Shown: positions 1 to 15,483 of the stretch, piece after piece
Layout: the number at the start of each line of letters is the position of its first letter
How positions within the stretch are numbered: the stretch's first letter is position 1
Source: a virus
Strand: one strand, 5' to 3'
Virus genome (UHGV): UHGV-0338003
Length of the DNA: 16,255 nucleotides
Notes under the pieces: model-generated
The model's input: only the letters and a program-made list of their open reading frames with translations
What the model was told of the DNA's origin: nothing
The model's database searches: none
Translations under genes and position numbers: made by a program

Positions 1-155
1 TTCATGGATCAGTAAGCGTAACTCTGGTAGGCTCACTCTGCTTTTGCGCTAAAGCAGTGGGCCGTGGTTCGCTTGTGACCAGTAAGCATGAGCGAATGGC
101 TGGCAGGTGCTACCAACACCCACCAGCCGCCCATTTTCACAGCAGGAAACCGCCA

Positions 156-383: not shown

Positions 384-480
384 GACATACCAATAACTCT
401 TGTCTAAAAAGCCAGCAAGATAAAAAGTCAGTATTCACGACCACCAGCGTGTTTACTGTACTGCACCAAGTTTACAGGTA

Positions 481-505
481 CAAAAAACCCGCTCAGTGGC
501 GGGTT
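481..505 (-). terminator. intrinsic terminator downstream of Q (tR'-like)
   Basis: On the minus strand: stem ACCCGC, loop CACTGA, stem GCGGGT, followed by a run of six T. Lies in the 228-bp gap downstream of the Q gene. Confidence 0.55.
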
Positions 506-551
506 CTTAAATCTTATCAACGGTAGACATACAAAGCCCATCGTTGGGAAA

Positions 552-580
552 ATCTTATCCATGTTTTTTGAAAAATGCAA
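552..580 (-). promoter_or_regulatory. candidate late promoter (PR'-like) between Q and the terminator
   Basis: Minus strand reads TTGCAT (-35, 580-575), a 17-nt spacer, then TAAGAT (-10, 557-552). Position matches lambdoid PR'/qut upstream of tR'. Sequence-only prediction. Confidence 0.3.
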
Positions 581-611
581 GCATCATGTCGCCATCTTCG
601 GCGAAAATCAT

Positions 612-1370
612 TTATTTTGTCACTTTTCTCAATTGTGTCTCTGCATATGCTTCTTCCTGCCAGCACTTTGTAACCAGTTTATCAATGACATCTGCATATC
701 CTTTGTACCACTGATAATCCGTCAGATCCGGTACCAGCTTCTGGACATGATGCCGCGCCAGTGTGGTTGGTAAACGGCTAAACCGGTTTCCATTGCAACG
801 CCCACAAATCTTATAAACAGGCGTGCCATGAAGCCGGGTCCTTTTTTCATCCAGGACAATACCTTTACCCTTACACCCTCTGCACGCTGTGCTGACTTCT
901 CCCTTACCATGACAATGCTGACATAGTTCCTTCACCCACTCCTCCTTGATAACAGATTCACCGCTTCTGGAGTGTTTCACCACTTCGCGCAATACATTAT
1001 GAAATCCAGTACCTGCACAATGCTCACAGCGAGCCTTACTTGCCGCAGACCTGGAATAATCAGCAAAGGCAAAATTCACAAGGTAAGGGATGATCTGTAA
1101 CCGGGTTTCTTCACTCAATTTATTCAATGTCGGGTTATCCAGTGCCATCGCGTAATTGAGCAGACCTTCAATCGCAAACTGAGGATCCTGAACACCAACT
1201 TTTGCCAGGAATAAGGCAAAACCCAGTGGTGCTTTCGACTGCACCATCCCCTGCGCAGCCATCACATCCGTAATCGTTAAACCACCAGAGCCTGTCGCCG
1301 GTGCGTCATCGCTCAATTTTGGAGATTTTGGGGAGTAATATTTTGGTAAGGCTTCAAGGTTCATGCTCAT
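612..1370 (-). CDS. antitermination protein Q (long, zinc-finger-containing lambdoid Q family)
   Basis: 252 aa with four CxxCxGxG-like motifs (CEHCAGTG, CQHCHGKG, CRGCKGKG, CGRCNGN). Last gene of the early operon, directly upstream of the candidate PR'/terminator. Resembles Qin-type Q of E. coli prophages, from memory. Confidence 0.6.
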   Translation of the reverse strand: MSMNLEALPKYYSPKSPKLSDDAPATGSGGLTITDVMAAQGMVQSKAPLGFALFLAKVGVQDPQFAIEGLLNYAMALDNPTLNKLSEETRLQIIPYLVNFAFADYSRSAASKARCEHCAGTGFHNVLREVVKHSRSGESVIKEEWVKELCQHCHGKGEVSTACRGCKGKGIVLDEKRTRLHGTPVYKICGRCNGNRFSRLPTTLARHHVQKLVPDLTDYQWYKGYADVIDKLVTKCWQEEAYAETQLRKVTK

Positions 1371-1377
1371 TCTCCAC

Positions 1378-2373
1378 TTACGCCAGTACGCCTATTGCCA
1401 GCGCACGATCGATAAAACGAAATATCAGCTCCAGCTGGGAGCCATACTTCTCTTCAAATGCCACGGTATCCGCATGCAGCTCGTCGTGATGCTTTCTGCA
1501 CAAAGGCAACACAAAGAGGTCATGCGCTTTTGTACCCATTCCCCCCTGACCGTGGCCTATCAGGTGGTGGGGATCATCAGCGGGCTTTCCACAACATGCA
1601 CACGGCTGTGTCTTAACCCAGCGCGTGTACTTTTCATTAACCCAGCGGCGACGTTTTGGGCGTAACATAAAAGACTCCGGCGACTCCGGATCCACTTTCA
1701 GCGCCAGCACCTTTTTTGCCTTATCCTGGATGATGCTGGTGGCAGGAACCGAAGGCACAAGGTCACTTTCCCGGGTGACAGACGGCACAACAGGCTTTGG
1801 TAATCTCAGTGCCTTACGGGCTGCACTTTCCGGTAAGGCATCCGCCAGGTCATTACGAATCAGCCACCAGCACAGTTCCGGCATTGTCACAACGTGACTA
1901 TCATCAAAACCGAGATCCCGACGCACAACAGACAACACCCAGCGGGCACAGTTATCCGTTGCCATTGATTCCAGCCGTTCCGTGAACTGATCGCGCAGCT
2001 GGTTATCACAGTGCCAGCACAGACGGATTGCGCCCGGAGCGTGTCGCATTGTGGTCATGTTCTCGCTGTGCCAGTCGGAATGAGGCCACTGGCAGCCTTT
2101 TTCACGAAGTAACCAGCTTTCAAGACATTCCACGCCACCAGCACGACGGATCACTGCCTCATTGCGGAACACGGCCCGAACGGCAGGATCATCCGCCAGC
2201 GGTTGTGATGCCGCCGGAACGGCACCACTGGAGAAAGATGAATAACGCTCCGGCTCAGGCTCCAGCAGGACACGCCCCTGCATAAACAGGGGCATCAGCT
2301 CTGAACCGGGTCTGAACAATACGATCCCCATACGCGGGGCTATTTCAGGGGTCAGTAGTGCTCTCACGGTCAC
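1378..2373 (-). CDS. DUF968-like prophage protein (YdfU-like) with C-terminal Cys/His-rich motif
   Basis: 331 aa. C-terminus has CACCGKP...HHLIGHGQGG...CRKHHDELH, typical of DUF968 proteins found just upstream of Q in E. coli prophages. Start overlaps the KilA-N stop. Confidence 0.55.
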   Translation of the reverse strand: MTVRALLTPEIAPRMGIVLFRPGSELMPLFMQGRVLLEPEPERYSSFSSGAVPAASQPLADDPAVRAVFRNEAVIRRAGGVECLESWLLREKGCQWPHSDWHSENMTTMRHAPGAIRLCWHCDNQLRDQFTERLESMATDNCARWVLSVVRRDLGFDDSHVVTMPELCWWLIRNDLADALPESAARKALRLPKPVVPSVTRESDLVPSVPATSIIQDKAKKVLALKVDPESPESFMLRPKRRRWVNEKYTRWVKTQPCACCGKPADDPHHLIGHGQGGMGTKAHDLFVLPLCRKHHDELHADTVAFEEKYGSQLELIFRFIDRALAIGVLA

Positions 2374-2374
2374 C

Positions 2375-3184
2375 TCAATGAACGGTATCGAGCAGCTTTA
2401 ACAGCTCAGGGAATCGGGATTCGAAGAAATGCGGCTGCGTCTCACGCGGATTTGCGGGACTGGTAATGTTCTTGCCGAACATGCAACCTTTCGCTGTCAG
2501 CGACCAGAATTTTTTGATGTTGTTAATCGCGGTACGGCTGTATCGTTCGCGTTGTTCAACGATCCCCAGCTTCGCCATCTGGTGATATGCCTGATTAGCC
2601 GTCAGGCGGATACCATACTGCTTCAGCAGTGCACTCAGCGACAGCGTCGGGCGGCTTGAGCCATCAGGCGCGTCAGCAGGTGCATCAATGGCATAGCGCG
2701 GTGCCAGATTCGGTAAGCCAACAGCCTCCTGGAGTTTCTGACAGGCCCCAAGCACTGAAGAGTTAGACAGGTTTAACTCCCTGCGCATAAAGTCCAGCAG
2801 AATCACTCCAGCCTGCATCTTGTCAGCAGCCTGCCCGGATAATTTTTCCGGTACGCTGGTTACCATATCGAAAGTACGGATCACCTTCAGATGGAATGAC
2901 GGGCTGATCCACATTGCATAGGCATACACCAGTTCTTTGCAGACATACGTCCCCTGGTTATTTCCGCCATTAATGACGCTAACTGGTTGATTTTGTTCCA
3001 GAGGCGGAATTCCACCCTCGGTGAAAAGTTGTTCAATCAATTCACAGGTTTGCTTATTGGAGAGCCAGTATTTCGGGCGGTTTTTTTGTTCTCCCCCGGC
3101 TGCCCTGTGCAGATCGTTCAGGCTGTAACGCCCATAAGCATCACGACGAACTTCAATACCATCAATGACCATCAGATTATTCAT
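2375..3184 (-). CDS. KilA-N domain protein (antirepressor-like)
   Basis: 269 aa. N-terminus VIDGIEVRRDAYGRYSLNDLHRAAGG...KNRPKYWL matches the KilA-N signature. Confidence 0.7.
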   Translation of the reverse strand: MNNLMVIDGIEVRRDAYGRYSLNDLHRAAGGEQKNRPKYWLSNKQTCELIEQLFTEGGIPPLEQNQPVSVINGGNNQGTYVCKELVYAYAMWISPSFHLKVIRTFDMVTSVPEKLSGQAADKMQAGVILLDFMRRELNLSNSSVLGACQKLQEAVGLPNLAPRYAIDAPADAPDGSSRPTLSLSALLKQYGIRLTANQAYHQMAKLGIVEQRERYSRTAINNIKKFWSLTAKGCMFGKNITSPANPRETQPHFFESRFPELLKLLDTVH

Positions 3185-3203
3185 ACTTCGTTTCTCCTCT
3201 TAA

Positions 3204-3593
3204 TCAGGCGGCTGCACCCGCCGTTTTCTCGTACTTACTGATAGTGATCTCGACCTTCCCTCCCGGGATAACCGGTCCCCACTCCACCAGCATTCTTTTC
3301 ACCTGACTGTCGTCTTCCCACACACCCGCGTGGGTCAGGGCGTCAAACAGCGCCTTGTTATAGTTGTCCAGATCGCGGATCCGGTTATCCGGAGGAAACA
3401 ACACGATCTCCACTGAAGCAGGTGCCGACGTTGGTTTCGGCAGACGACGTAACTGCTCAACTATTGCTGCGCACGCCGCGCTCTGGAATTTTCGCCCCGC
3501 CGCGCTTATCAGACTCTTACCAGCAAACGCCCCTTTGTTGGGGTGTCGCCAGTACGTGTTCACGCTGGGCGGGAAAGGCAAGATCAGCTTCAT
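3204..3593 (-). CDS. rusA: RusA-family Holliday junction resolvase
   Basis: 129 aa with PPSVNTYW and RDLDNYNKALFDALTHAGVWEDDSQV motifs characteristic of RusA. Typical nin-region gene. Confidence 0.85.
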   Translation of the reverse strand: MKLILPFPPSVNTYWRHPNKGAFAGKSLISAAGRKFQSAACAAIVEQLRRLPKPTSAPASVEIVLFPPDNRIRDLDNYNKALFDALTHAGVWEDDSQVKRMLVEWGPVIPGGKVEITISKYEKTAGAAA

Positions 3594-3595
3594 AC

Positions 3596-3916
3596 TTACA
3601 GGCCTCTCTCATGTAACCAGTGGGCTGCACGCAGCCTGGCGTTTTCCTCACCGGCAAGCAGTGTGCGGATAATCCCGACCGCCTCGCTGTCGTCGTCCTT
3701 CACCGCGGTATGAAGCGTTATCCCCCGGGCCACGCCACGCTTTATCGTGATGACGCCTTTTTTCTCCAGTGCACGAAGATGCTCTACCGCTGCATTCACT
3801 GAACGGTATCCCAGCATGGTTGCCACCTCCTGATTGGTTGGCGGAAAGCCACGCTCTTTCTGGTAAGAAATCAGCATATCCAGCACCTGCTGCTGGCATT
3901 GAGTTAACGTCGTCAT
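3596..3916 (-). CDS. LexA N-terminal DNA-binding-domain-like protein (no peptidase domain)
   Basis: 106 aa. Residues 1-70 parallel the LexA winged-helix domain (QQQVLDMLISYQKERGFPPTNQEVATMLGYRSVNAAVEHLRALEKKGVI...RGVARGI). No S24 Ser/Lys peptidase region. Confidence 0.6.
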   Translation of the reverse strand: MTTLTQCQQQVLDMLISYQKERGFPPTNQEVATMLGYRSVNAAVEHLRALEKKGVITIKRGVARGITLHTAVKDDDSEAVGIIRTLLAGEENARLRAAHWLHERGL

Positions 3917-4566
3917 GCCGCCATCTCCCTGACCAGTTTTTCCGCCTGCTGGCGAACCTGCACCAGAAAGGCTTCACCACATGCCTCAAGTTCATCGCGC
4001 CCGATGTAGCTGATTGCCGGTCCCTTCCAGGTCTTGTCGAAAACAGCAATAGCACCAGCGAAGAAAGCGCCTGTCGGCACCTGCTTCTCATCCTTCGGGA
4101 TAAACCAGGCAGGCAGTTCAAAACCAATACGCCCGCGAATAAAAGCAATATGGTCCGCATCTTCCGGCCACCACACTTCGCTGGTGGCAGCTTTGATCAG
4201 GAAAACATAGCGCCCGCCCTTATCACGCATGGCACTGGCATGTTTCATGATGTAACGCATGCCGGTGATGTATTGCCCCTCATGCTGACTGGCGCGGCTG
4301 TATGGGGGATTACCAAAGGCAGCACCTTTAAGCTCCGCAAGACGTTCTGACCAGTCATGCGCCAGCGCGTTGTCTTCCGCCGTGTAATACGCGGCACATT
4401 TGGCGTTATCACCGTCAGTGAACAGATCCAGAACAAACGGACCAAACAGGGTGTTAATTCCCCAGAAAATGTTATCCGGCGTGCGCCACTGATCTCCCAC
4501 TTCCTTCAGTTCATGGGCTGGTTTATTCCGCAGTTCCACCAGCGCCTGGCAATATTTATTACTCAT
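3913..4566 (-). CDS. phage-type DNA N6-adenine methyltransferase (Dam family)
   Basis: Contains the FGNPPYS catalytic motif. Preferred start is the ATG at 4566-4564, which overlaps the upstream stop as TAATG. The longer ORF reaching 4599 would run into the upstream gene. Confidence 0.75.
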   Translation of the reverse strand: MSNKYCQALVELRNKPAHELKEVGDQWRTPDNIFWGINTLFGPFVLDLFTDGDNAKCAAYYTAEDNALAHDWSERLAELKGAAFGNPPYSRASQHEGQYITGMRYIMKHASAMRDKGGRYVFLIKAATSEVWWPEDADHIAFIRGRIGFELPAWFIPKDEKQVPTGAFFAGAIAVFDKTWKGPAISYIGRDELEACGEAFLVQVRQQAEKLVREMAA

Positions 4567-5060
4567 TAAGCCCCCACGTAATTCCCTGACAGATACCACT
4601 CTTCACCCGATGCAGCGTGCTTGCTGCTTTTCCGTAAGCACCGCTCACGACGCGCCAGAAAATTGTTTCGTTCTGGCTGGGAGTGGCTTTCACGGAATGC
4701 CGCCATCCACACGGTTGCAGCACGACGGTATAAGCCCCTTGACTCCAGTTCTTCCGCCTGGCGGGTCAGGCACAAAATCACCCGGGGATCGTTAGTGCCG
4801 ACATAGAAATTGCGCGCAGGTCTGGTTTCACGAACTGGTTGTGGTTCCGGCTCCTGCGCTCTCTCAGTCAGGCGCGGGAAATGTCTGCGTGTATCCCCTT
4901 CACAACGGTGAGCCACACGCCCACTCTGACGTAACTTGCTTGCTGACTGCAGAACGCGCTGCCGTGAGTAACCAGCAAAAGCATCCGCAATGTCTCCGGA
5001 AGTACACCCCGGATGGGCTTCAATGAATTTCTGAACGTCATTTAACAGACTCATGATCAC
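4566..5060 (-). CDS. PerC-like transcriptional regulator with N-terminal winged-helix extension
   Basis: 164 aa. C-terminal AEELESRGLYRRAATVWMAAF resembles the PerC/Pch signature (LE.KGLWRRAA.W). ATGA overlap with the replication gene stop. Confidence 0.5.
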   Translation of the reverse strand: MIMSLLNDVQKFIEAHPGCTSGDIADAFAGYSRQRVLQSASKLRQSGRVAHRCEGDTRRHFPRLTERAQEPEPQPVRETRPARNFYVGTNDPRVILCLTRQAEELESRGLYRRAATVWMAAFRESHSQPERNNFLARRERCLRKSSKHAASGEEWYLSGNYVGA

Positions 5061-5998
5061 CCCCTGAATCCTGCCGGGATCTGGCTGTAGTCCACGTTGT
5101 CGTAACTGGATTTGAAGTACGGGTCTTCGCGTTTTTCAGTGTACGTGCTTACGGACGGCGATAAGCGCAGGGAAAGCTCATCCCATTTTTCCCGCAGCTT
5201 CGACGGGCTGAGCACGTTACGGCACCAGAACGGATCGCGGCTGACGCGGCTGTACATCTCGCAGATTTGTTTGTGAGTACGACCATCCTGCACACACATC
5301 AGGCGAATTTCGTTTGCCCAGGCTGTCCAGTTCGGTTCTTTGGGACGAACCACCTCGCCGTCACATTCGGCGGCCTGCTCGTACAGGGCGATGATTTTTT
5401 TCCAGAGCCACTGTGCGCAGGTCAAATCATCCTGCGTTCCCCACTGGCGCTTTTTAGGGCTGAATACAACCGCATCAGGATGGCGAGTTAAAAAATCCTG
5501 TTCATCCGTCTGCGTGTCCGGTTGCGAAGCGTCCGGACGAGAAGTTTTTTTATCTGACGGATCATGTTTTGATTTTACTGACGGATCCCCGCCAGATTCT
5601 GACGGGTGAAAACCCGCTTTTTTGCCAGATTTCGACGCATCAAATTTTGACGGGTCAGATTTTGATGCGTCAGATTTTGACGGGTCAGAATCTGACAGTT
5701 GAGAAAATGCCGCTGCCTGAAGCTTCGCAACGTTAAGCTGATAAACATTCGACGCATTGCGGTTACCCTGGCGACGCGCCTTACGCGTTAACCAGCCTTC
5801 TGCTTCCAGCCGTGCGATAGCCGTTCTGACGGTACTCATCCCCGCGCCAATCTGGCGGGCAATGGTTTCAATTGATGGCCAGCACACACCTTCGTCATTA
5901 CTGAAATCAGCCAGGCGGGCCATAATTGCCACGCTGGATAATTTCATGCCTGATGCAGCGCAACCATCCCATACATAGCCGGTTAATTTAGTGCTCAT
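5057..5998 (-). CDS. phage replication initiation protein (O-like)
   Basis: 313 aa. N-terminal HTH (SIETIARQIGAGMSTVRTAIARLEAEGWL), a central low-complexity SKSD/DPSK repeat linker encoded by DNA iterons, and a C-terminal domain as in lambdoid replisome organisers. Confidence 0.6.
   Translation of the reverse strand: MSTKLTGYVWDGCAASGMKLSSVAIMARLADFSNDEGVCWPSIETIARQIGAGMSTVRTAIARLEAEGWLTRKARRQGNRNASNVYQLNVAKLQAAAFSQLSDSDPSKSDASKSDPSKFDASKSGKKAGFHPSESGGDPSVKSKHDPSDKKTSRPDASQPDTQTDEQDFLTRHPDAVVFSPKKRQWGTQDDLTCAQWLWKKIIALYEQAAECDGEVVRPKEPNWTAWANEIRLMCVQDGRTHKQICEMYSRVSRDPFWCRNVLSPSKLREKWDELSLRLSPSVSTYTEKREDPYFKSSYDNVDYSQIPAGFRG
5550..5700. repeat. iteron array (candidate origin of replication) inside the replication initiator gene
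   Basis: About eight tandem copies of a roughly 15-bp unit such as CAGATTTTGACGGGT (also CAGATTCTGACGGGT, CAGATTTTGATGCGT, TACTGACGGATC), flanked by T-runs. Same layout as lambda ori inside O. Confidence 0.5.
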
Positions 5999-6007
5999 GA
6001 CCGACCT

Positions 6008-6346
6008 CTATTTCCCTGAATTTACGACGAAACTGTTCGAGCGGGCTGAAGCACTCATGCTCATAGCCTTCGCGGAGGTAGATAACCCGTTGTGTTTCCG
6101 GCTCCCAACGAATGACTCTGACGGGCACTCCGTAGTGATCTTTGAACCAGCGGTTAACTTGTCGCAAAGGACTGTCTCCTTCTGCCGGTTGAAATCACCC
6201 ACAGCCCACTCTGCAAAGCTGTGGGTTACAATTTCCCTGTCACCTGGTACATTTACTGCATAGCAATACTCCACCTTCGCTTTTCCACCCGGTACAGGAA
6301 GCGCAATCAGTTGCGAGCGACGGTAGTGTGTTGTTAAACTGTTCAT
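6008..6346 (-). CDS. hypothetical protein between the CII-like and replication genes, with a probable frame break
   Basis: ATG at 6346 overlaps the CII-like stop. The first 50 or so residues look protein-like, then the frame turns low-complexity, while a second minus frame over about 6003-6190 is protein-like ([42 protein letters not shown]) but has no ATG. Confidence 0.3.
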
Positions 6347-6894
6347 GCGTTAGTTTCTCCACAGTCACGACACGCCACGGCGCCCGGAGCTGCACACTCG
6401 CGGGCGTCATTACTTTCTGAAATGCAAAAAATTTTGTAGACCAGTGCTGCATGCTCCTGCAGCTTCGAAATTGAGAGGTACAGCTCGTCGTTAATTGCTG
6501 TCTTCTCATGCGGTTCCACTACACCGTCTTCAATTGCTGAACGAATCTGTTTTGAATAACTGCCGATCTGTTCAATGACTTCCAGCAGGCGCTGGTTAAT
6601 ATCGGCGTTGTCCACATCCTCGACGTCAGGAAGAGACACAAAGACGCCATTTGCAGACTGCGCCACAGCGTCAGCAATGAAGTGAGTTCCACCAGCACGT
6701 TGCAAAATCATTGCCCATCCCAGCGGGAAAATCTGATCGCCATCGGCACGAAGGCGGTTAAATAATGCGTTCTCTGTTACATCCAGCCAGTCAGCAGCTT
6801 CAGCGTACCCCCCCGGCAACGCTGCGATAGTTTTTCTGACAGCTTTCACGTACCACTCAGGCTGTTTTTCTACTTTCCAGTGATGCTTACCCAC
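6343..6894 (-). CDS. CII-like regulatory protein (phage CII/CP76-type, YdaT-like)
   Basis: 183 aa, immediately downstream of cro with overlapping start and stop. Central [22 protein letters not shown] resembles CII-family regulators. Assignment from position and memory only. Confidence 0.45.
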
Positions 6895-7147
6895 GGTTCA
6901 CCTCCTGTTCCTGTGGTTTAAACCCATTCTGATTTTGGCTAGATTGAAAACGTGCCGGATAAAGAATCTGCATTTCGCTGACTTCACCCTTAAAAAAATT
7001 GGCTAAACGTTCTGCAAGCTCGATAGATGGAATCTGCTCCAGCCTCTCAATACGACTCAACGTCGCTGGATTGACTTGAACACCCGCAGCAACATGCTGC
7101 AAAGTGAAACCATGCGCCTTACGCACATTTCGTAATGGTGATTGCAT
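6887..7147 (-). CDS. Cro-like HTH (XRE-family) transcriptional regulator
   Basis: 86 aa with HTH GFTLQHVAAGVQVNPATLSRIERLEQIPS. GGAGGA RBS upstream. Divergent from the cI gene across an operator region. Confidence 0.7.
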   Translation of the reverse strand: MQSPLRNVRKAHGFTLQHVAAGVQVNPATLSRIERLEQIPSIELAERLANFFKGEVSEMQILYPARFQSSQNQNGFKPQEQEVNRG

Positions 7148-7161
7148 ATGTCCTCCAAATA

Positions 7162-7224
7162 TTGCGCGTTATGCATGTTATTTCACGCAATTATTTTGCG
7201 CAAGTTGATTTGCTTATCACGCAA
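7162..7224. promoter_or_regulatory. OR-like operator region with three sites between the divergent cro-like and cI genes
   Basis: Three partially palindromic sites at 24-bp spacing: TTGCGCGTTATGCAT (7162-7176), CGCAATTATTTTGCG (7186-7200), TTGCTTATCACGCAA (7210-7224). Divergent promoters are implied by gene arrangement. Confidence 0.55.
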
Positions 7225-7244
7225 TAAAGAAATGTAATAAACGC

Positions 7245-7937
7245 ATGAACATAGGAAACCGAGTCAGACAACTTCGCCAAGCGAAGAACATGAAAATCGC
7301 CGATCTCGCTGAAGCAATAGGAGTAGATGCGGCGAACATCTCGCGCTTAGAAACGGGTAAGCAAAAACAATTTACCGAACAAACACTGAGTAATATTGCC
7401 AAGAGCTTAGGTGTTGATATTGCTGATCTCTTTACCTCTGCCCACAAAAGTAATACTGTATATAAAAACAGTAATAATGAGGATGTTGCGCAGGTGAAGG
7501 ATGTGTTCCGTATTGAAATGCTGGATATCAGTGCCAGTGCGGGAAATGGCCTTATCCAGGGCGGTGATGTCATTGATGTGATTCATGCCATCGAATACAG
7601 AACTGATAATGCTGTATCAATGTTCGGCGGACGACCAGCCAATCACATCAAAGTTATCAACGTTCGTGGGGACAGTATGTGTCCAACCATTGAGCCAGGA
7701 GATCTCATCTTCGTTGATGTCAGCATCAATCAGTTTGATGGTGATGGTATATATGTCTTTGGTTTTGATGACAAAATATACGTTAAAAGACTTCAAATGA
7801 TTCCTGACAAACTGCTGGTGATTTCTGATAACCAGATTTACCGTGAATGGGGAATTACTAGCGAAAACGAACACCGATTCATGGTCTTTGGAAAGGTCTT
7901 AATCAGTCAGTCGCAAACCCTTAAGAGACATAATTAA
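7245..7937 (+). CDS. CI-type prophage repressor (HTH plus S24 LexA-like autopeptidase)
   Basis: 230 aa. N-terminal HTH (MKIADLAEAIGVDAANISRLETGKQ) and a C-terminal S24 domain with GDSM serine motif and downstream KR. No obvious SD before the ATG, so possibly leaderless. Confidence 0.85.
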   Translation: MNIGNRVRQLRQAKNMKIADLAEAIGVDAANISRLETGKQKQFTEQTLSNIAKSLGVDIADLFTSAHKSNTVYKNSNNEDVAQVKDVFRIEMLDISASAGNGLIQGGDVIDVIHAIEYRTDNAVSMFGGRPANHIKVINVRGDSMCPTIEPGDLIFVDVSINQFDGDGIYVFGFDDKIYVKRLQMIPDKLLVISDNQIYREWGITSENEHRFMVFGKVLISQSQTLKRHN

Positions 7938-7957
7938 CCTCAATATCCCATCCATCG

Positions 7958-7980
7958 GCCACCGAAAGGTGGCTTTTTAT
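7958..7980 (+). terminator. intrinsic terminator after the repressor gene
   Basis: Stem GCCACC, loop GAAA, stem GGTGGC, followed by TTTTTAT. Lies 20 bp downstream of the cI stop. Confidence 0.6.
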
Positions 7981-7991
7981 TACCTATAAAT

Positions 7992-8042
7992 TTGCATATT
8001 TCGCAAAAATCACTTGCATATCTCGCAATTTAATTTTATCTT
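7992..8042 (+). promoter_or_regulatory. PL/OL-like promoter with two operator copies
   Basis: Direct repeat TTGCATATTTCGCAA (7992-8006) and TTGCATATCTCGCAA (8014-8028), same TTGC-N7-GCAA pattern as the OR sites. -35 TTGCAT at 8014-8019, 17-nt spacer, -10 TATCTT at 8037-8042. Confidence 0.4.
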
Positions 8043-8199
8043 TTGTTCCAGACCAACTACAGGATTACAACAAAATCTGGTTGCAACACGGTGCATGTGT
8101 CGTAAGCAGTCAGTAAATGTCAAAAACGAACAGGCAGGACGCCCACGAAGTAGCCGCCTGGGGCATATGAAGTCCAGGATGATTCGTTAGCAACAAAAA

Positions 8200-8236
8200 A
8201 GCGCCCTACAGGACGCTTAGCTCTTTAACAATCTGG
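8200..8236 (+). promoter_or_regulatory. BoxA-like antitermination element preceded by a hairpin (nut-like or rrn-like)
   Basis: GCTCTTTAACAA (8220-8231) matches the rrn BoxA core and resembles lambda nut boxA (CGCTCTTA). Preceded by the AGCGCC...GGACGCT hairpin. Sits in the leader between the PL-like promoter and the first plus-strand ORF. Confidence 0.4.
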
Positions 8237-8276
8237 TCCCCATCAACAAGTAACTGATAACTTGAGGAGATGTGAA

Positions 8277-8483
8277 ATGCACAAAACAGAACCCAAAATC
8301 GTCGCGCCTGGCTACACAGATGAGGAAATTTATGAGTGGATGACAAAGAAGCTGGCAGCTATAAACCAGCTTCGTGAAGTGCTGTCTTATCGACAGGAAA
8401 CAATAGACTCCTTAAAAAAACTGGATCAGGAAATCACGGTTTTATCACAGGATGTTACTTTAGATATTGTGCAGACAAATTAG
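8277..8483 (+). CDS. hypothetical small protein (predicted helical)
   Basis: 68 aa from the ATG at 8277, with a GAGGAG RBS 7 nt upstream. The ORF-track start at 8262 is a TTG. The 3' end overlaps the convergent 144-aa gene by 29 bp. Confidence 0.4.
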   Translation: MHKTEPKIVAPGYTDEEIYEWMTKKLAAINQLREVLSYRQETIDSLKKLDQEITVLSQDVTLDIVQTN

Positions 8484-8889
8484 GATCCCATTCATTTTCG
8501 TCAAAATCATCAAAGTGATGAATTTGTGATCTCCAGTCTCGATAATCTAAAAATTTCTGGGCGGTTACGCTTATTTTATCAAGTGTGAGTTCATCCTGAA
8601 TTGAAAGAAGAAGTTCATCAAATTTCATCTCATTAATCTGTTTTGGCATCCAGTGATGCTTCATCAGAATAAGGTGAACCAGAGCCTTTTTCCCATTCAA
8701 CTGATTATAGGGAGTGCCGAATTTCTTCCGGTGCTCATGTAAGACAAGGTCCAGAAGAGTAAGTAATGTTGCCCTTGATTCAACTTTGCTTATTTCGACT
8801 GATGACACTACCCCACTGATTTCAATGCCCCGATACTTTCCAACATTTTCACAGTGGGATTTGTACAGCGTATAGATATTACCGGACAT
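8455..8889 (-). CDS. hypothetical protein, AT-rich immunity-region moron
   Basis: 144 aa. ATG at 8889 with an AAGGA RBS on the minus strand. No recognisable family by eye. Direct repeats lie upstream. Confidence 0.5.
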   Translation of the reverse strand: MSGNIYTLYKSHCENVGKYRGIEISGVVSSVEISKVESRATLLTLLDLVLHEHRKKFGTPYNQLNGKKALVHLILMKHHWMPKQINEMKFDELLLSIQDELTLDKISVTAQKFLDYRDWRSQIHHFDDFDENEWDPNLSAQYLK

Positions 8890-9357
8890 TTCTTTTCCTT
8901 TTGCGTTGTTGGGGATAACCAGATTAACCGAATCCTTGTTGTTGGGGAATAACCAGGTCCACCTCGCCTGATGTGGCTAAAAGCAGGCACATAACAGCTA
9001 AGTATTTTCAACCAGAGAGAATCCTTAGCGTTGTGGTGAATGCGGCTCAGCGCACGCGGGTTAAGGTTGAGGCTGACAGTCGACCTTCTGTGGATACCCA
9101 CCCGCCTGGTGTGCAACCTTCGCCAGGCACCGGGAGGCACCCGGCACCACAACTTTATGCTGTGTGTAGTCCTGGCGGTACCAGCTTGTACCCTTGCTTC
9201 CGGCTGGTACCGTCCTTTTTACAAAACAGAGAAGAGCATCACCGGACGACGGGCTCATAACCCAATCCATCCGGGCGGCAGTCACCGCAGGTGTTCTTCT
9301 CTGTTTTGTGGAGAAACTAACCGACCTTGCAGGGTCGATATGATGAGGAGCAGCAAA

Positions 9358-9720
9358 ATGGCTAGCGAACGCAGTACTGATGTGCAGGCATTTATCGGGG
9401 AGCTGGACGGCGGCGTATTTGAAACCAAAATCGGCGCAGTTCTCAGTGAAGTCGCTTCCGGTGTGATGAACACGAAAACCAAAGGTAAGGTCTCGCTCAA
9501 CCTGGAAATCGAACCGTTTGATGAGAACCGTGTGAAAATCAAACACAAACTCTCATATGTTCGCCCAACTAACCGCGGGAAAATTTCCGAAGAAGACACC
9601 ACCGAAACGCCGATGTATGTCAATCGCGGTGGTCGCCTGACTATTCTGCAGGAAGACCAGGGACAATTACTGACTCTTGCCGGTGAACCTGACGGAAAAC
9701 TCCGCGCAGCAGGTCGTTAA
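9358..9720 (+). CDS. YfdP-like prophage protein
   Basis: 120 aa from the ATG at 9358, with GAGGAG 7 nt upstream. The 5' extension to 9040 in the ORF track is GC-rich and not protein-like. Directly precedes YfdQ/YfdR-like genes, as in CPS-53. Confidence 0.55.
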   Translation: MASERSTDVQAFIGELDGGVFETKIGAVLSEVASGVMNTKTKGKVSLNLEIEPFDENRVKIKHKLSYVRPTNRGKISEEDTTETPMYVNRGGRLTILQEDQGQLLTLAGEPDGKLRAAGR

Positions 9721-9785
9721 TATCGTTCGTAATAAACTGATTATTTATCTCATCACTGAATATCTTTATATAGTGAGGACTTATT

Positions 9786-10610
9786 ATGTCTCAGAACTTA
9801 GACGCAACCGCAATTAATCAAATCCATGCCCTTATTTCTGCTCAGGGTGTTAATGAAATTATCAGTAAGATTGGTGCCGATGCTGTGGCATTGCCTGAGA
9901 ATTTCCGCATTCATGATCTGGAAAAATTTAATTTAAATCGCTTCCGTTTCCGTGGTGCACTTTCCACTGCCAGCATCGATGATTTTACCCGTTATTCTAA
10001 AGATCTTGCAGATGAAGGCACCCGCTGCTTTATCGATGCCGATAATATGCGTGCCGTCAGTGTGCTTAACCTGGGTACTATTGATGAGCCAGGTCACGCA
10101 GATAACACTGCCACTCTCAAACTGAAAAAGACAGCACCGTTCTCTGCTCTGTTGTCTGTTAACGGCGAGCGTAACTCCCAGAAGTCACTGGCAGAATGGA
10201 TCGAAGACTGGGCCGACTACCTTGTGGGCTTTGATGCTAATGGTGACACCATTCAGGCAACAAAAGCGGCTGCGGCGGTCCGTAAAATCACGATTGAAGC
10301 AAACCAGACTGCTGATTTTGAAGATAATGACTTCAGCGGCAAACGCTCCCTGATGGAGTCTGTCGAAGCGAAGACCAAAGACATTATGCCAGTGGCATTT
10401 GAGTTTAAATGCGTTCCGTTTGAAGGTCTGAAAGAACGTCCGTTTAAATTACGCCTCAGCATTATCACTGGCGATCGTCCTGTACTGGTTCTGCGCATTA
10501 TTCAGCTGGAAGCGGTGCAGGAAGATATGGCTAACGAATTTCGTGATCTGCTTGTTGAGAAATTCAAGGACAGCAAAGTAGAAACCTTTATTGGGACTTT
10601 CACCGCCTGA
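9786..10610 (+). CDS. yfdQ: YfdQ-like protein (DUF2303 family)
   Basis: 274 aa with a GAGGA RBS. Recognised from memory as the conserved prophage protein encoded upstream of yfdR in E. coli CPS-53. Confidence 0.65.
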
Positions 10611-10738
10611 TTTCATTACTGCAAATGCCCCTGCGGGGGCATTTATGGAAACGTAATTGACTCAATAATCGCCTGAAGGCGAGGGTTTTCTTTAACCAAA
10701 ATTCAGCGCGGTGCAGCGCATATAACGTGGAGAACAAA

Positions 10739-11263
10739 ATGTCATTTATTAAAACTTTTTCCGGGAAACATTTTTATTATGACAGGATAAATAAAGACAA
10801 CATCGATATTAACGATATCGCGGTTTCCCTTTCAAATATCTGTCGCTTTGCCGGCCATCTTTCACACTTCTACAGCGTCGCCCAACATGCGGTGCTTTGC
10901 AGCCAGCTGGTACCGCAGGAATTTGCTTTTGAAGCGTTAATGCATGATGCAACAGAAGCGTATTGCCAGGACATCCCGGCTCCACTGAAACGCCTTCTTC
11001 CTGACTATAAACGGATGGAAGAAAAAATAGACGCCGTAATCCGTGAGAAATACGGGTTACCCCCGGTTATGAGTACGCCCGTGAAATATGCCGATCTCAT
11101 CATGCTGGCAACCGAACGCCGCGATCTCGGGCTTGATGATGGCTCTTTCTGGCCCGTACTGGAAGGTATCCCGGCAACAGAGATGTTCAAAGTTATTCCA
11201 CTGTCGCCAGGCCATACCTATGGGATGTTTATGGAACGCTTTAAAGAGTTAACTGAGTCGTAA
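10739..11263 (+). CDS. yfdR: HD-domain 5'-deoxynucleotidase (YfdR-like)
   Basis: HD-domain metal-binding residues present (H...H, then MHDATEAY). ATG at 10739 follows a GGAGAA RBS. The ORF track's GTG at 10727 would give 178 aa. Confidence 0.7.
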   Translation: MSFIKTFSGKHFYYDRINKDNIDINDIAVSLSNICRFAGHLSHFYSVAQHAVLCSQLVPQEFAFEALMHDATEAYCQDIPAPLKRLLPDYKRMEEKIDAVIREKYGLPPVMSTPVKYADLIMLATERRDLGLDDGSFWPVLEGIPATEMFKVIPLSPGHTYGMFMERFKELTES

Positions 11264-11371
11264 AAATCAGCACGTACGAATTCAAACTCTGCCATAAAAG
11301 AACATATAAGTAATTTATTAACATATAGATATAGGTTATATTACAAATTGAAAAATTATTGGAGAGCAACA

Positions 11372-12238
11372 ATGAATCAAAATCCATTCTCATTCTATGA
11401 CTTTCTTGGATATTTAATACCAGGTGGTTTTTTTATCCTATTAATGTATTTCTGTGGTTTGACATTCGATCTAGATATTGTTATTGACTTAAGTGAATTG
11501 CTCAGAGGTCAAAGTCAAATCTTTGGCATTTTGAACTACGCTTCAATAGTTATTATATCTTATATAGCTGGACATTTTATTTCTATCACGTCAGCATTTT
11601 TTATCGAAAAATACATGAATAAAGAATTAGGATATCCTTCCAAATATCTATTTAAAAAATTGATAGATACCTCAGAAAGCATTTGTAGCCCATCATGCGA
11701 TGAGAGAAGCGCTGATAAAAAAACAAAAATAAAGAATCGCATAATCAAATGCGTATTATGTCCAATAATACTATGGGATTTTATAACACAAAAACTATGT
11801 TATTCTCAATCTCTACCATTTCATTTAGCTAATACAACATGGTTAATGATCAAAGAAGGTTATGAGAAAAAGTTCATAACAAATCGCCAATTATTACAAG
11901 ATAAAAACGGACTTGATGATGATCTCTTCAGATTGGCATATCATTATGTTTATGAGTTTTCAAAACAACATCAAACAAAAATTCAAAACTATGTTGCATT
12001 ATATGGTTTTTGCAGAAACATATGTTTAATCTTTATAATTTCATTTTGGGTATCAGTTCCAACCTTTATTTATCGATTATGTACTCATAGTGATTATCTT
12101 TATAGTTTACTTTCAATAATGCTTAGCTTTTTCTTCGTCTATGTTTTCTATGTTGGTTTTGTTAAATTTTATAGAAGATATACTTTAGAAGTATTAATGG
12201 CATTTGCTGTACTTCAAAGTAACGACACTATTCGTTAA
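11372..12238 (+). CDS. hypothetical integral membrane protein, AT-rich moron
   Basis: 288 aa from the ATG at 11372, with GGAGAG 5 nt upstream (track start 11348 is TTG). Hydrophobic helices at both ends (GYLIPGGFFILLMYFCGL, IVIISYIAGHFISITSAFFI, ICLIFIISFWVSVPTFIY, LSIMLSFFFVYVFYVGFV) around a soluble middle. Much lower GC than its neighbours. Confidence 0.55.
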   Translation: MNQNPFSFYDFLGYLIPGGFFILLMYFCGLTFDLDIVIDLSELLRGQSQIFGILNYASIVIISYIAGHFISITSAFFIEKYMNKELGYPSKYLFKKLIDTSESICSPSCDERSADKKTKIKNRIIKCVLCPIILWDFITQKLCYSQSLPFHLANTTWLMIKEGYEKKFITNRQLLQDKNGLDDDLFRLAYHYVYEFSKQHQTKIQNYVALYGFCRNICLIFIISFWVSVPTFIYRLCTHSDYLYSLLSIMLSFFFVYVFYVGFVKFYRRYTLEVLMAFAVLQSNDTIR

Positions 12239-12279: not shown

Positions 12280-12486
12280 ATGCTGAACCTCGATTGTGTT
12301 CCTATCTCAACTTATTGCAAAGAAACTGGCGAAACTCCTGAAGCAATAAACAAACGTGTACAGCGCGGTGTTTGGCGTGAAGGTGTTCAGGTTTTAAAGG
12401 TTGAAGGCGTTAAGGAGAGGTGGATTGATCTTAGTGAGGTTGCAAAATGGGCCAGACAAAACTGCTCAAACTACCGCGCGGCGTAA
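12280..12486 (+). CDS. xis: excisionase-like small DNA-binding protein (Xis)
   Basis: 68 aa from the ATG at 12280, with GGAGA 5 nt upstream. Immediately upstream of and overlapping int. Basic protein with Trp residues typical of small Xis proteins. Called mainly from position. Confidence 0.45.
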   Translation: MLNLDCVPISTYCKETGETPEAINKRVQRGVWREGVQVLKVEGVKERWIDLSEVAKWARQNCSNYRAA

Positions 12487-13619
12487 CAATCAGGAAACAC
12501 CGCCAGGGAGAAACGATCAATATAACTTTCACCTACAAAGGAGTTAGATGTCGTGAGCCGCTTTCCAATCTGGAAGTAACACCAAAGAACATTAAATACG
12601 CCGAGCGTACACTCGGCGAAATCCATAATAAGATCGAAAGGGGAACATTCATTTATGCAGAATATTTTCCCCGTTCTGCTCGTTTGAAAATTTTTGGTAA
12701 TGCTGCTGCAGGCAAAACGGTAAAGATGTACCTGGACGAATATCTTGAAATCTGCGAAACAAGAAAACTTTCACCCTCTACGATTGGTGGCTATAAAAAA
12801 TGCCGTAGTGCGTTAGCCTCACTTCACATTTGCCCTGCAAGTGAATTAACACCAGCAACCCTGAAAGCGTGGATTCAAAATCAGAAAACGACCTTAAAAA
12901 CAATTCGCAACCAGTTATCTTTCCTGCGGTCAGCACTTGATGAAGCCGTGACCGATGGGGTACTTCAAATTAACCCCGTATCGTTAGTAACAGCTTCGCG
13001 CTACCAAAGTGATAAGTCAGAAGCAGAAAGCAGCTACGTAGTTGATCCGCTATCACCAGCAGAAGTTGATGCATTACTAGCAGCAGCCGGAAACAAACAA
13101 TGGGAAAATCTGTTCCGGTTCGCTATACATACAGGCCTGCGTAGTTCTGAATTATGTGCCCTTCGATGGCGTGATATCGACTTTGTTGGAAAAACTGCCC
13201 ATGTCCAGAGCGCAAGTGTTGTCGGTGTTATCAAAGGGACAAAGACAAAAGCAGGTACTCGGAAAGTTGAACTGACAGAAGAGGCAATGTTGGCGCTGAT
13301 AAATCAGAAGCCATTTACATTCATGAAGGATACTACTGTCTTTGAAGATCCAAAGACCAATAAGCCTTGGGCAAGTGCTGATGCAATCAGGAAAAAAGCA
13401 TGGGTGCCAACATTGCGAAAAGCAGGTATTCGTTACAGAAATCCATATCAAACTAGGCATACATTCGCCACCCGCCATATCAGCCGGGGAGCAAACCTGT
13501 TTTGGCTTGCAGCTCAAATGGGGCATAAAGGGCCGGAAATGTTATTTCGTCATTATGGTTCATATTTAAAGGAATATGACGGTAATACGACCAGCAATAT
13601 CACAAAAAAAGCCACTTAA
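12447..13619 (+). CDS. int: tyrosine recombinase, lambda-family phage integrase
   Basis: 390 aa. C-terminal catalytic signature: R in AIHTGLRSSEL, HTFATRHISRG, and RHYGSY with the nucleophile Tyr. Adjacent to the att-like tmRNA fragment. Confidence 0.9.
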   Translation: MGQTKLLKLPRGVTIRKHRQGETINITFTYKGVRCREPLSNLEVTPKNIKYAERTLGEIHNKIERGTFIYAEYFPRSARLKIFGNAAAGKTVKMYLDEYLEICETRKLSPSTIGGYKKCRSALASLHICPASELTPATLKAWIQNQKTTLKTIRNQLSFLRSALDEAVTDGVLQINPVSLVTASRYQSDKSEAESSYVVDPLSPAEVDALLAAAGNKQWENLFRFAIHTGLRSSELCALRWRDIDFVGKTAHVQSASVVGVIKGTKTKAGTRKVELTEEAMLALINQKPFTFMKDTTVFEDPKTNKPWASADAIRKKAWVPTLRKAGIRYRNPYQTRHTFATRHISRGANLFWLAAQMGHKGPEMLFRHYGSYLKEYDGNTTSNITKKAT

Positions 13620-13630
13620 GTGGCTTTATC
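13604..13630. terminator. bidirectional intrinsic terminator between convergent int and the HEPN-like gene
   Basis: Perfect 20-bp palindrome AAAGCCACTTAAGTGGCTTT (13608-13627) flanked by A- and T-runs. The int stop codon lies in the loop. Confidence 0.55.
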
Positions 13631-13632
13631 AA

Positions 13633-14016
13633 TTAGGAGGCTCTCGATTTAAGCATTTCCGTACACTTAGCAAAGAGCCTCTCAGTTGTTAGAATCGCAA
13701 CTTCAGACTGTTTAGAAGTGACCGATTGATCAAGTCGATAGTCTGCAACAATCCTCTGAGCTTTAAGTTGACTCAGGATAAAACTAATCCCTTTTAGATA
13801 TCTAGCTTCATATACTTCACTTCCTCTTGAAGCATCGCCCTGCAAATAATTGATTAGCCCCTGATGACTGTCTTTCGGCCCGTTTACCATACAAGGCAAG
13901 ACATGATGGTAAGCGCCATAGTAGGATCTTGCTATAGCATTTCGATAGCCGATTTCGTCATTACGTTGATGACAGTCTTTTGCAAAACCGAGAAAATCTT
14001 GACTATTAACCGGCAT
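13633..14016 (-). CDS. HEPN-like domain protein (candidate effector or toxin)
   Basis: 127 aa from the ATG at 14016, with GGAGGG 6 nt upstream. N-terminal helix AKDCHQRNDEIGYRNAIARSYYGAYHHV and a later R-x4-DY (QRIVADYRL) fit the general HEPN pattern. Overlaps the upstream gene by 11 bp. Confidence 0.45.
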   Translation of the reverse strand: MPVNSQDFLGFAKDCHQRNDEIGYRNAIARSYYGAYHHVLPCMVNGPKDSHQGLINYLQGDASRGSEVYEARYLKGISFILSQLKAQRIVADYRLDQSVTSKQSEVAILTTERLFAKCTEMLKSRAS

Positions 14017-14821
14017 GTGCAACCCTCCGGGTAATCAGACCTAATTCGGAGATAGCATTCTGCTCAATATGTGTGTCTTTACATTCAAACCAAACAGCAA
14101 AATCTTTACCGACTAAACAATCGTGCTCAGCCATTGAAAAAGCAAGCTCAATATTCATATCAGCGATTTGTTCAGCATCAGAAGACTTTGTCATGAATAC
14201 AATCGCATTCACTTTCTCTTCCGAAATATTATAAAAACGCATTCCCGAAAGATGAACCTTCTGAGAATCCATGACATTGGCTACATTATTGAAAATAAGT
14301 TCATATTCTAAACCAGAAAGATCGGCACGTTGCTTAAAGGATTCGACCTGGGAAACAACTTCATCAAAATTGTTGTCCATTTTTTCAGGCTCCTTATCTC
14401 CGAACAATTTAGAGTATGACTGGAAATACTTCTCCGCCAACGCCATCTTCCCCATAAAGAGGGAGTTTTCATAAGCTTGAAGATAAATAAACGGGGATAT
14501 GAAGCTTTCAGCAAGCTTAATGCTTGTTTCAAAGCTTTTCTTCAACGTACCGTAATCTGACAAGAAAACAAGAAAATTCTTTGCAACAACCTCATTATGG
14601 CATACCTGCAAGGAACGCTCAAAGAAGCCTATCGCCTCATTCACTTGGCCATGTGCACCATAGACCAACGCTAAAAGATAGTCCTCAGAGACAGGATCTC
14701 TAAGTGCTTCAATCTCACGTAACATCCTTCTAAAGCTAAAGTCATCAATCCTCACTCCATCTTTGAGGTATTTAGTTAGCCGCGCGCTAATAACTGATGC
14801 TTTTTTTGCTGGCTGCAACAT
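14006..14821 (-). CDS. hypothetical protein, upstream partner of the HEPN-like gene
   Basis: 271 aa. ATG at 14821. Predicted mostly helical. No nucleotidyltransferase motif (GS...D.D) and no recognised family. Confidence 0.5.
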   Translation of the reverse strand: MLQPAKKASVISARLTKYLKDGVRIDDFSFRRMLREIEALRDPVSEDYLLALVYGAHGQVNEAIGFFERSLQVCHNEVVAKNFLVFLSDYGTLKKSFETSIKLAESFISPFIYLQAYENSLFMGKMALAEKYFQSYSKLFGDKEPEKMDNNFDEVVSQVESFKQRADLSGLEYELIFNNVANVMDSQKVHLSGMRFYNISEEKVNAIVFMTKSSDAEQIADMNIELAFSMAEHDCLVGKDFAVWFECKDTHIEQNAISELGLITRRVAHAG

Positions 14822-15248
14822 TAAAAACCTTATCTTACAAATAGTTGGTAATGATGTTGAATTATTTTTTGTTCTTTATGGCTAATAAGATTACATGAAG
14901 GGACAACTTCTGACCACCTTAGAAAACACTCACTTTAGTAACAAGAGTCAATAATATTGTTGACAAATCACAAAAAAACAAACTTATCCAAAACAATCTG
15001 GTTTATCACAAAGCCTCTGTGCATAAATCTGTGCATAACATCATTTTTACACACATTTTTTTATAAAAATATTTTTTAGCAAAAAATGCTATCTATCTCC
15101 GAAACTGCAACCACAAACCATTAATTCCAAATGAAACTATTTTAAAATAAATAGTAAGACAGTAACAGGACAGAAAAAGTTCCGCAAAAGAGCCGCTTGT
15201 AAAATCAACAATATTTGGCTATTTAAATTCAATGAATTACATAACTAT

Positions 15249-15279
15249 GGACACGGGTTCAACTCCCGCCAGCCCACCA
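15249..15279 (+). other. partial tmRNA (ssrA) 3' end, candidate prophage attachment core
   Basis: GGACACGGGTTCAACTCCCGCCAGCCCACCA matches the tmRNA T-arm, acceptor 3' strand and CCA. The rest of the ~360-nt tmRNA body is absent. The sequence upstream is AT-rich phage DNA. Confidence 0.6.
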
Positions 15280-15327
15280 AAATTCTCCATCGGTGATTAC
15301 CAGAGTCATCCGATGAAGTCCTAAGAG

Positions 15328-15358
15328 CCCGCACGGCGCAAGCCCTGCGGGCTTTTTT
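15328..15358 (+). terminator. intrinsic terminator downstream of the tmRNA 3' fragment
   Basis: Stem GCCCGCA, loop, stem TGCGGGC, followed by TTTTTT. Confidence 0.5.
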
Positions 15359-15412
15359 GTGCCTTGAATTTGTCCCGCGAAGTCTGATGCCAACTAATTA
15401 AATCCGAACCTT

Positions 15413-15465
15413 TTAGGCACCTTGTTAGGCACCTCATAAAGCTTTATTGTTTTTGAGGTGCCTAA
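15413..15465. repeat. TTAGGCACC repeats upstream of the degraded P4-type integrase (candidate integrase binding sites)
   Basis: TTAGGCACC at 15413-15421 and 15425-15433, with the inverted copy GGTGCCTAA at 15457-15465. Confidence 0.4.
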
Positions 15466-15483
15466 AACTATGGAAACCCGGCA

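Follow-up and report, generated by a model that had tools for sequence, protein, structure and literature searches.

Two overlapping genes on the minus strand of the UHGV virus genome UHGV-0338003 (a stretch of 16,255 nucleotides, referred to here as the window) constitute a self-contained, horizontally mobile cassette that occupies the variable slot between the integrase gene and attR of an E. coli lambdoid prophage integrated at ssrA. The first gene encodes a partner protein made of a TPR-like helical array and a C-terminal domain of no known family; the second encodes a small protein that has the HEPN fold and, judged at the family level, appears to fall within the AF0298/UPF0332 HEPN-T class. 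We propose that the pair is a prophage-borne, HEPN-based abortive-infection or toxin-antitoxin (TA)-like anti-phage module, a reading to which we assign a probability of about 0.5.

Conservation and organization of the gene pair

A preliminary description of the segment, made from the letters alone, had read two minus-strand genes of 271 and 127 amino acids overlapping by 11 bp, and the open reading frames (ORFs), the RefSeq annotation (where both products are labelled 'hypothetical protein') and the homologs bear this out. Homologs of each gene number from dozens to hundreds, hence both genes are real. The 127 residues of the small protein are counted from the ATG, the mechanical ORF list giving 129 residues from an upstream TTG. 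A GGAGG Shine-Dalgarno sequence lies 8-9 nucleotides (nt) 5' of this ATG and AAGG precedes the start of the first gene; the 11-nt overlap together with the GGAGG upstream implies that translation of the two genes is coupled.

The association of the two genes is strict. Complete loci, 25 in number, were sampled from the HEPN side and from four distant representatives of the partner (E-values from 1e-24 to 1e-5), and in every one of them both genes are kept, with the partner directly upstream of the HEPN gene. Each of the four distant partner representatives has a HEPN-family gene downstream of it (E-values from 1e-14 to 1e-37). In homologous loci the two reading frames share 1-20 nt, are directly adjacent, or lie no more than 15 nt apart, and the pair has the arrangement of type II TA systems, two co-transcribed and usually overlapping genes that always occur together. 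In a Proteus locus both genes have decayed. Of the two proteins the partner has diverged more quickly (in one comparison it retains 36% identity and the HEPN protein 61%, in another 29% and 47%), and no conserved non-coding element accompanying the pair was found across the loci.

The small protein is a HEPN protein with a modified motif

The structure model of the second gene product (pLDDT 92) has the HEPN fold, with the predicted four- to five-helix up-and-down bundle that characterizes it. The profile built from 30 sequences of the family matches HEPN chains of the PDB, namely 9xbd (E = 2.7e-5) and 9xbc (1.4e-4), both deposited as 'HEPN domain-containing protein', and AF0298 (2hsb, 0.019). 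In these alignments the RAYY, SH and R..sDY motifs are in register, and H51 is aligned with the SH of 9xbd. Ubiquitin chains ranked higher in the same search and were discarded as artefacts, because a stretch of 25 residues around 'R..sDY' was summed over polyubiquitin repeats, with an E-value of about 400 per stretch. The Pfam HEPN family PF05168 is matched by 24 of the 30 homologs (best E-value 2e-5). The window protein itself has no Pfam match at E<=1 and its NCBIfam scan was empty; direct Pfam and NCBIfam scans of both window proteins returned only sub-threshold TPR matches and a spurious match to VapB15. PHROG 5176, of unknown function, matches the small protein at 1e-29. Its homologs comprise 50 proteins of 119-144 amino acids and one fragment of 90, some of them labelled at source 'UPF0332 family' or 'HEPN domain-containing'. 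The HEPN-like character proposed in the preliminary description is therefore supported by the structure model, the PDB profile matches and the Pfam matches of the homologs, and the peptide quoted there is present in the protein. The accompanying motif, given as R-x4-DY, has to be corrected: its actual form is R-x3-DY (equal to R-x4-Y), that is, R88-I-V-A-D92-Y93.

Eleven residues (R25, N26, R30, Y32, Y33, Y36, H37, H51, R88, D92 and Y93) are invariant among the 30 homologs, and H51, R88, D92 and Y93 are kept even in relatives at 33-38% identity from distant loci (L021, L036, L038 and L039). In the HEPNs of AF0298 type the histidine of the motif is missing and its arginine is kept, and a second conserved histidine, N-terminal to it, could make an alternative active site (Anantharaman et al. 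2013, PMC3710099). Both attributes are found here, the motif arginine being R88 and the N-terminal histidine H51. It is plausible, judging from conservation, that H51 and R88 form a non-canonical RNase site.

A distant HEPN-like relative (32% identity, E = 8e-9) is found in the baseplate module of the Yersinia phage YP3 (L042:3007-3366). No partner-size gene is annotated upstream of it, and it may represent a separate, solo branch of the family.

The partner combines a TPR-like array with an unclassified domain

PHROG 17809, also of unknown function, matches the partner at 1.6e-37. An exhaustive profile search collected 210 representatives, of which about 120 are stand-alone proteins of 245-290 amino acids; the remaining ones are TPR-repeat proteins matching only residues ~50-80. 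In the AlphaFold2 (AF2) model (pLDDT 87) eight helices are placed within residues 4-140 and are followed by a second domain with the secondary structure elements H152-166, H170-187, E191-199, E204-211, H216-231 and E242-247. This domain carries a conserved motif, DMNxxLAxxLAE...K.F..WF, and gave no significant sequence match in Pfam or the PDB when used as a separate profile. A match of one family member to DUF1902 did not recur in others and was dismissed. No nucleotidyltransferase domain was detected in the partner by Pfam, NCBIfam or PADLOC, and the fold, a TPR-like array joined to an unclassified C-terminal domain, agrees with the earlier statement that the partner is not a minimal nucleotidyltransferase.

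A natural allele separates both domains. At least 18 E. coli contigs carry a 1-nt insertion at nt 367 that splits the partner gene and leaves the HEPN gene intact (e.g. L032:3001-4190, GCA_028491845.1). The insertion leaves an N-terminal ORF of 137 aa and, beginning at M148 behind AAGGAG-N8-ATG, a second one of 124 aa (M148-271); the latter, which may be expressed, covers precisely the C-terminal domain in an intact frame. The persistence of an intact HEPN gene beside a split partner means that the former is tolerated without full-length partner, which is dispensable for viability. Either the HEPN protein is inert until activated and not toxic alone, or the C-terminal fragment of the partner suffices as a restraint, and the second option, a hypothetical one, would fit the division of labour proposed below.

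The same allele bears on the possibility that the small protein is not a nuclease but an adaptor binding a ligand, a nucleotide or a protein, the role first proposed for the HEPNs that accompany nucleotidyltransferases; the TPR protein might then exclude incoming phage proteins non-abortively, or the pair might regulate processes of the host or the prophage. A HEPN gene that persists without intact partner would agree with such a role, as would the missing Rx4-6H motif, the protein-binding nature of TPR arrays, and the identity of the structurally closest proteins, AF0298, TT1696 and ST0689, for which, to our knowledge, no nuclease activity has been demonstrated. However, the invariance of H51, R88, D92 and Y93 across wide divergence resembles that of an active or ligand site rather than that of a scaffold, and the HEPN protein of type IX retrons, whose His/Arg arrangement is the same and whose sequence the small-protein family resembles, is an RNase by experiment. 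We consider the adaptor role unlikely.

Hosts and genomic settings of the pair

The pair is found in gammaproteobacterial hosts (Escherichia, Citrobacter, Enterobacter, Pseudocitrobacter, Mixta, Serratia, Xenorhabdus, Aeromonas, Gilliamella and a metagenome-assembled genome of Thiotrichaceae), and three metagenome contigs are also among the sampled loci that carry it. Its settings are diverse. It lies at prophage ends beside differing integrases; in Mu-like Aeromonas prophages, between mor/gemA-like genes and the lysozyme gene; in siphoviruses, Klebsiella phage ST405-OXA48phi1.3 among them, between the genes of the tail chaperone and the tape measure; and in a baseplate module. In Mixta a solitary chromosomal copy sits in the murJ-flgN interval, and in Gilliamella one follows frr, with an MFS gene on its other side, the gene identities having been read from the translations. 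Comparison with sequenced phages by megablast gave no match, and tblastn retrieved distant relatives only.

The presence of several homologous pairs within tail or baseplate clusters, and the assignment of both proteins to PHROG families of unknown function, might suggest that the pair benefits the phage itself, either as a counter-defence factor, for instance one that sequesters or inhibits components of host immunity, or as a helper of virion or tail assembly. Nevertheless, the pair also stands alone in bacterial chromosomes, away from phage genes, and in the window it is convergent to the integrase gene and has its own leader and terminator. Within phage modules it is preceded mostly by gaps of 120-440 bp, as expected of independently expressed cargo and not of members of a structural operon, and the other occupants of its int-att slot are defence systems. 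Hence, a service to the phage particle or against host immunity seems very improbable.

The slot between integrase and attR is a cargo hotspot

The window matches E. coli YF-1 at 99.9% identity; in that genome it forms the right-hand end of a lambdoid prophage whose early region contains yfdP/yfdQ/yfdR. The position of the pair between the integrase gene and an attachment (att) site derived from the transfer-messenger RNA (tmRNA) gene, as first described, is corroborated by the Pfam integrase domains and by a partial Rfam tmRNA match. Of 5426 complete E. coli genomes 412 possess the integrase of the window, and about 50 of these, roughly 1% of the complete genomes, also have the pair. The uropathogenic (UPEC) strain CFT073 is a carrier of the pair.

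Sister prophages that share this integrase have other genes in the slot. Some carry DarT with a NADAR antitoxin, in the same orientation as the pair; others carry an AAA ATPase and a Dam-type methylase, corresponding to PD-Lambda-5 (B subunit, 5.8e-124). Validated defence systems thus alternate with the pair at one variable place, and the proposal that this position is a slot for defence or TA cargo holds. Further occupants are: (i) a cassette of three genes without PADLOC match in E. coli NU14 and UTAK-10 (L029:4665-6535 and L031:4680-6568), coding for a 303-aa protein with a weak HATPase_c_2 match, a 108-aa STAS-like protein and a protein of 199 aa; (ii) single proteins of 259 or 272 aa without Pfam or PADLOC match (L024:5715-6494 and L026:5716-6534; ST131 and other strains); and (iii) in one strain, a ParA-family protein with proteins of 137 and 221 aa (L030:4927-6849). 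The site is therefore a sharply bounded int-attR cargo hotspot of ssrA-integrated lambdoid prophages, which holds at least three further uncharacterised cassettes. Regarding composition, the pair (GC 0.403) is richer in AT than the phage backbone at positions 1-11300 (0.493) and than xis/int (0.442), so that the direction of the bias reported earlier stands but the difference is moderate, not as clear as it had been worded.

These data, together with the organization of the pair, also bear on a plain addiction module, that is, a TA system that stabilizes the prophage or a chromosomal site by post-segregational killing, with no specific sensing of phages. The two overlapping genes with the larger, putatively neutralizing one upstream, the solitary copies that lie, with no integrase, among housekeeping genes, as is common for TA loci, and the presence of DarTG, itself a TA system, in the same slot of sibling prophages are all compatible with addiction. 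It is nonetheless rather unlikely, since the upstream protein, with its 250-270 amino acids and its TPR array, has no recognisable DNA-binding antitoxin domain; one clade of isolates has retained the split partner beside an undamaged HEPN gene, an observation at odds with a labile antitoxin that is obligatory; and the recurrent positions as phage cargo, tail modules included, fit defence against superinfection better than stabilization of a prophage.

Proposed mechanism

In the anti-phage module that we propose, both proteins would be made from one transcript by coupled translation. The HEPN protein, probably a dimer, would be the effector that cleaves cellular RNA (tRNA, rRNA or mRNA), using an active site built of His51 and Arg88 and not the classical Rx4-6H. 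The C-terminal alpha-beta-beta-alpha-beta domain of the partner would bind the HEPN protein and hold it silent, and the N-terminal TPR array would recognise a protein made by the phage. Once this trigger is bound, the HEPN RNase would be released or switched on, and translation in the infected cell would stop.

Several points weigh against the anti-phage module and lower the confidence that it deserves. The canonical Rx4-6H motif is not present in any of the 30 homologs, where Tyr93 takes the position of the histidine, and we know of no HEPN-T protein of AF0298 type with demonstrated nuclease activity. The frameshift allele does not support a simple model in which the partner is an essential antitoxin. 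PADLOC-DB 2.0.0 gave no system-level match for the pair and no consistent match for the partner. The likeness to the effectors of type IX retrons, to which we return below, is weak for the window protein, whose match to the PADLOC model HEPN_IX has an E-value of 1.3e-3 over 40 residues, and for the partner it consists of the same order of secondary structure elements in its C-terminal domain and in the HEPN-binding domains of the retron WH protein, a correspondence of topology only. A consensus scan of the 409-bp leader for a minus-strand sigma-70 site found none, and the promoter was not located; of the long AT-rich promoter region anticipated in the preliminary description, the AT-rich region (GC 0.289) is there but the minus-strand consensus is not. 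Finally, the present data establish the arrangement of the genes, the HEPN and TPR folds, the invariant residues, the strict linkage of the pair, its mobility and its place in the hotspot; the defence role, the toxicity and the RNase activity, as well as the assignment of sensor and killer, we infer.

If the pair does act in defence, it would be a HEPN-based system whose partner has a new architecture, a TPR array joined to an unclassified domain, and would offer a natural test of whether HEPNs of the AF0298/UPF0332 type are active RNases. This class is large and, as far as we know, no activity has been demonstrated for it since structural genomics solved its structures. The presence of the pair in CFT073, a reference uropathogen, and in about 1% of complete E. 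coli genomes, and that of its relatives in Enterobacterales, Aeromonas and Gilliamella, make it readily testable. It is a solid candidate, yet one among many uncharacterised candidate defence systems.

Cassette borders and neighbouring features

The features of the cassette and its surroundings are collected in Table 1.

Table 1. Coordinates of the gene pair, its protein domains and the flanking elements in the window
Feature	Position	Strand	Remarks
Gene 1, 271-aa partner protein	14821..14006	minus	ORF with ATG start; RefSeq WP_045171897.1; PHROG 17809
Partner residues ~4-140, TPR-like helical repeat array	14402..14812	minus	Putative sensor/protein-binding domain
Partner residues ~150-250, C-terminal domain without known family	14072..14374	minus	Helix, then helix-strand-strand-helix-strand
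Gene 2, 127-aa non-canonical HEPN-domain protein	14016..13633	minus	AF0298/UPF0332 type; WP_001145022.1; PHROG 5176
Gene overlap, 11 nt, ATGCCGGTTAA	14006..14016	minus	GGAGG upstream
Intrinsic terminator, hairpin AAAGCCACTTAAGTGGCTTT then TTTTTGTG	13608..13627	minus	Operon end; overlaps the integrase stop codon
Non-coding AT-rich leader	14822..15230		409 bp, GC 0.289; moves with the cassette
Exchangeable cargo cassette in the int-att hotspot (approximate)	13580..15249		Homology breaks versus siblings
Tyrosine integrase gene	12447..13619	plus	Convergent with the cassette; Pfam Arm-DNA-bind_2 9e-24, Phage_integrase 8e-17
att core derived from the ssrA (tmRNA) 3' end, GGACACGGGTTCAACTCCCGCCAGCCCACCA	15249..15279	plus	Within the Rfam tmRNA partial match 15231-15279
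ssrA terminator	15323-15356		3' of the att core

Homology with siblings that carry other cargo ends at 13579-13588, inside the 3' end of the integrase gene, and returns at about 15170-15250, near the att core. From these break points the exchangeable cassette measures about 1.6 kb; it contains the terminator, the two genes and, upstream of them, the leader rich in AT. The exchange takes in the last 10-13 integrase codons (13579-13619). In the siblings with other cargo the integrase matches end at nt 1100-1142 of 1173, with coverage of 1-1133 or 1-1142 among them, so that the C-terminus of the integrase varies with the cargo. The terminator, previously taken as bidirectional, is one for the minus strand, but in the plus direction no proper T-tract follows at 13608-13627, and the earlier reading is borne out only in part. 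Two other roles for the non-coding part were discarded: a shared attP arm, because the leader is cassette-specific, and an RNA as third component of the system, because Rfam gave no match and the upstream sequence is not conserved from one cassette to another.

A perfect direct repeat, TCTGTGCATAA, occurs twice in the leader (15016-15038, with a 12-nt spacing), about 200 nt upstream of the operon, and is absent from siblings with other cargo; the repeats may serve as an operator. Downstream of the att site, at 15484, is a gene for a P4-type integrase that belongs to the next island. Just upstream of this gene, at 15411-15467, TTAGGCACCT is found twice in direct orientation together with an inverted copy, AGGTGCCTAA; they probably serve the neighbouring island as arm-type sites or as sites bound by a regulator.

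On the other side of the integrase, between yfdR and xis/int, lies a 296-aa ORF (11348-12238, plus strand) whose GC content of 0.284 makes it far AT-richer than the pair. It matches PHROG 12528 at 9e-174 and, weakly, the PADLOC models of type VI-B CRISPR accessory membrane proteins Csx27 (1.4e-5) and tm_4 (1.1e-3). Its place is taken by different small genes in the sister prophages L024 and L025 and so looks like a second cargo slot; the product of the ORF is possibly a membrane exclusion or defence protein. Further upstream, at 9000-9223 on the plus strand, there is a match over the full model length to STnc100, a gammaproteobacterial small RNA of Rfam, with 42.4 bits, just under the gathering score of 47.

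Comparison with known systems

No mention of the accessions or the PHROG identifiers of the pair was found in the literature searched, and an earlier description of the pair may exist; the accessions do not appear in the DefensePredictor supplements examined. At the family level the small protein appears to be of the class of the AF0298/UPF0332 HEPN-T proteins (PF05168; PDB 2hsb, 1ufb, 1wol, 9xbd and 9xbc). Unlike typical members of PF05168, it lies under the detection limit of Pfam, and while HEPN-T proteins are usually paired with or fused to minimal nucleotidyltransferases (PMC3710099), those of the present family are always accompanied by a TPR-containing partner of 250-270 amino acids. 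The pair also differs from the type VII TA system HepT/MntA, which has the motif Rx4HxY where the window protein has R-x3-D-Y. With no nucleotidyltransferase domain in the partner, a neutralization by AMPylation in the manner of HepT/MntA cannot apply, and identity with this system was ruled out, there being no adjacent minimal nucleotidyltransferase gene.

HepS of Gifsy-1, which has a canonical RX4-6H and no partner gene, and Tha of S. aureus phages, described as a defence system with a HEPN domain that tail proteins activate, are prophage-encoded abortive-infection systems of a single HEPN protein, whereas here a non-canonical motif is combined with a strictly conserved, dedicated partner. 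HepS, AbiV, Tha and the DS systems of DefensePredictor were rejected as identities, the motifs of HepS and AbiV being canonical and HepS lacking a partner gene; DS-28 was rejected as well, its HEPN protein having 163 amino acids and its gene order being the reverse. With the cassettes that occupy its slot in siblings of the same integrase and att site, the DarTG-like one (an ADP-ribosyltransferase and a NADAR protein) and PD-Lambda-5 (an ATPase and a Dam-type methylase), the kinship of the pair is positional only.

The type IX retron (Retron-Kva2) offers a further comparison. Its HEPN effector lacks Rx4-6H and relies on H64 of helix 3 and R122 of helix 4, which it uses across the dimer. The effector is toxic by itself and cuts rRNA and tRNA; a WH partner of 245 amino acids cages it through two HEPN-binding domains, which are alpha-beta-beta-alpha-beta (bioRxiv 10.64898/2026.07.14.738597). 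The small protein shares with it the absence of Rx4-6H and a conserved histidine and arginine on successive core helices, and HEPN_IX, matched by 19 of 30 homologs (best E-value 9e-6), is the sole defence model of PADLOC that the small-protein family matches consistently. In the pair the partner gene comes first, and a TPR array stands where the retron WH protein has its HTH domain. Identity with a type IX retron was ruled out, since the cassette has two ORFs only, no reverse transcriptase and no Rfam retron RNA, and its leader is not conserved across cassettes. It is conceivable, at rather long odds, that the pair is related to the effector module of type IX retrons but stands free and does without a reverse transcriptase, and that in it the TPR array would sense a phage protein in place of multicopy single-stranded DNA (msDNA) and a HEPN RNase with split His/Arg site would be caged by the alpha-beta-beta-alpha-beta domain. 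If this were true, retron effectors, the 'orphan' HEPNs of UPF0332 type and the defence genes carried as prophage cargo would be joined in one evolutionary series, and the large AF0298 class of HEPNs would receive its first defined biochemical role.

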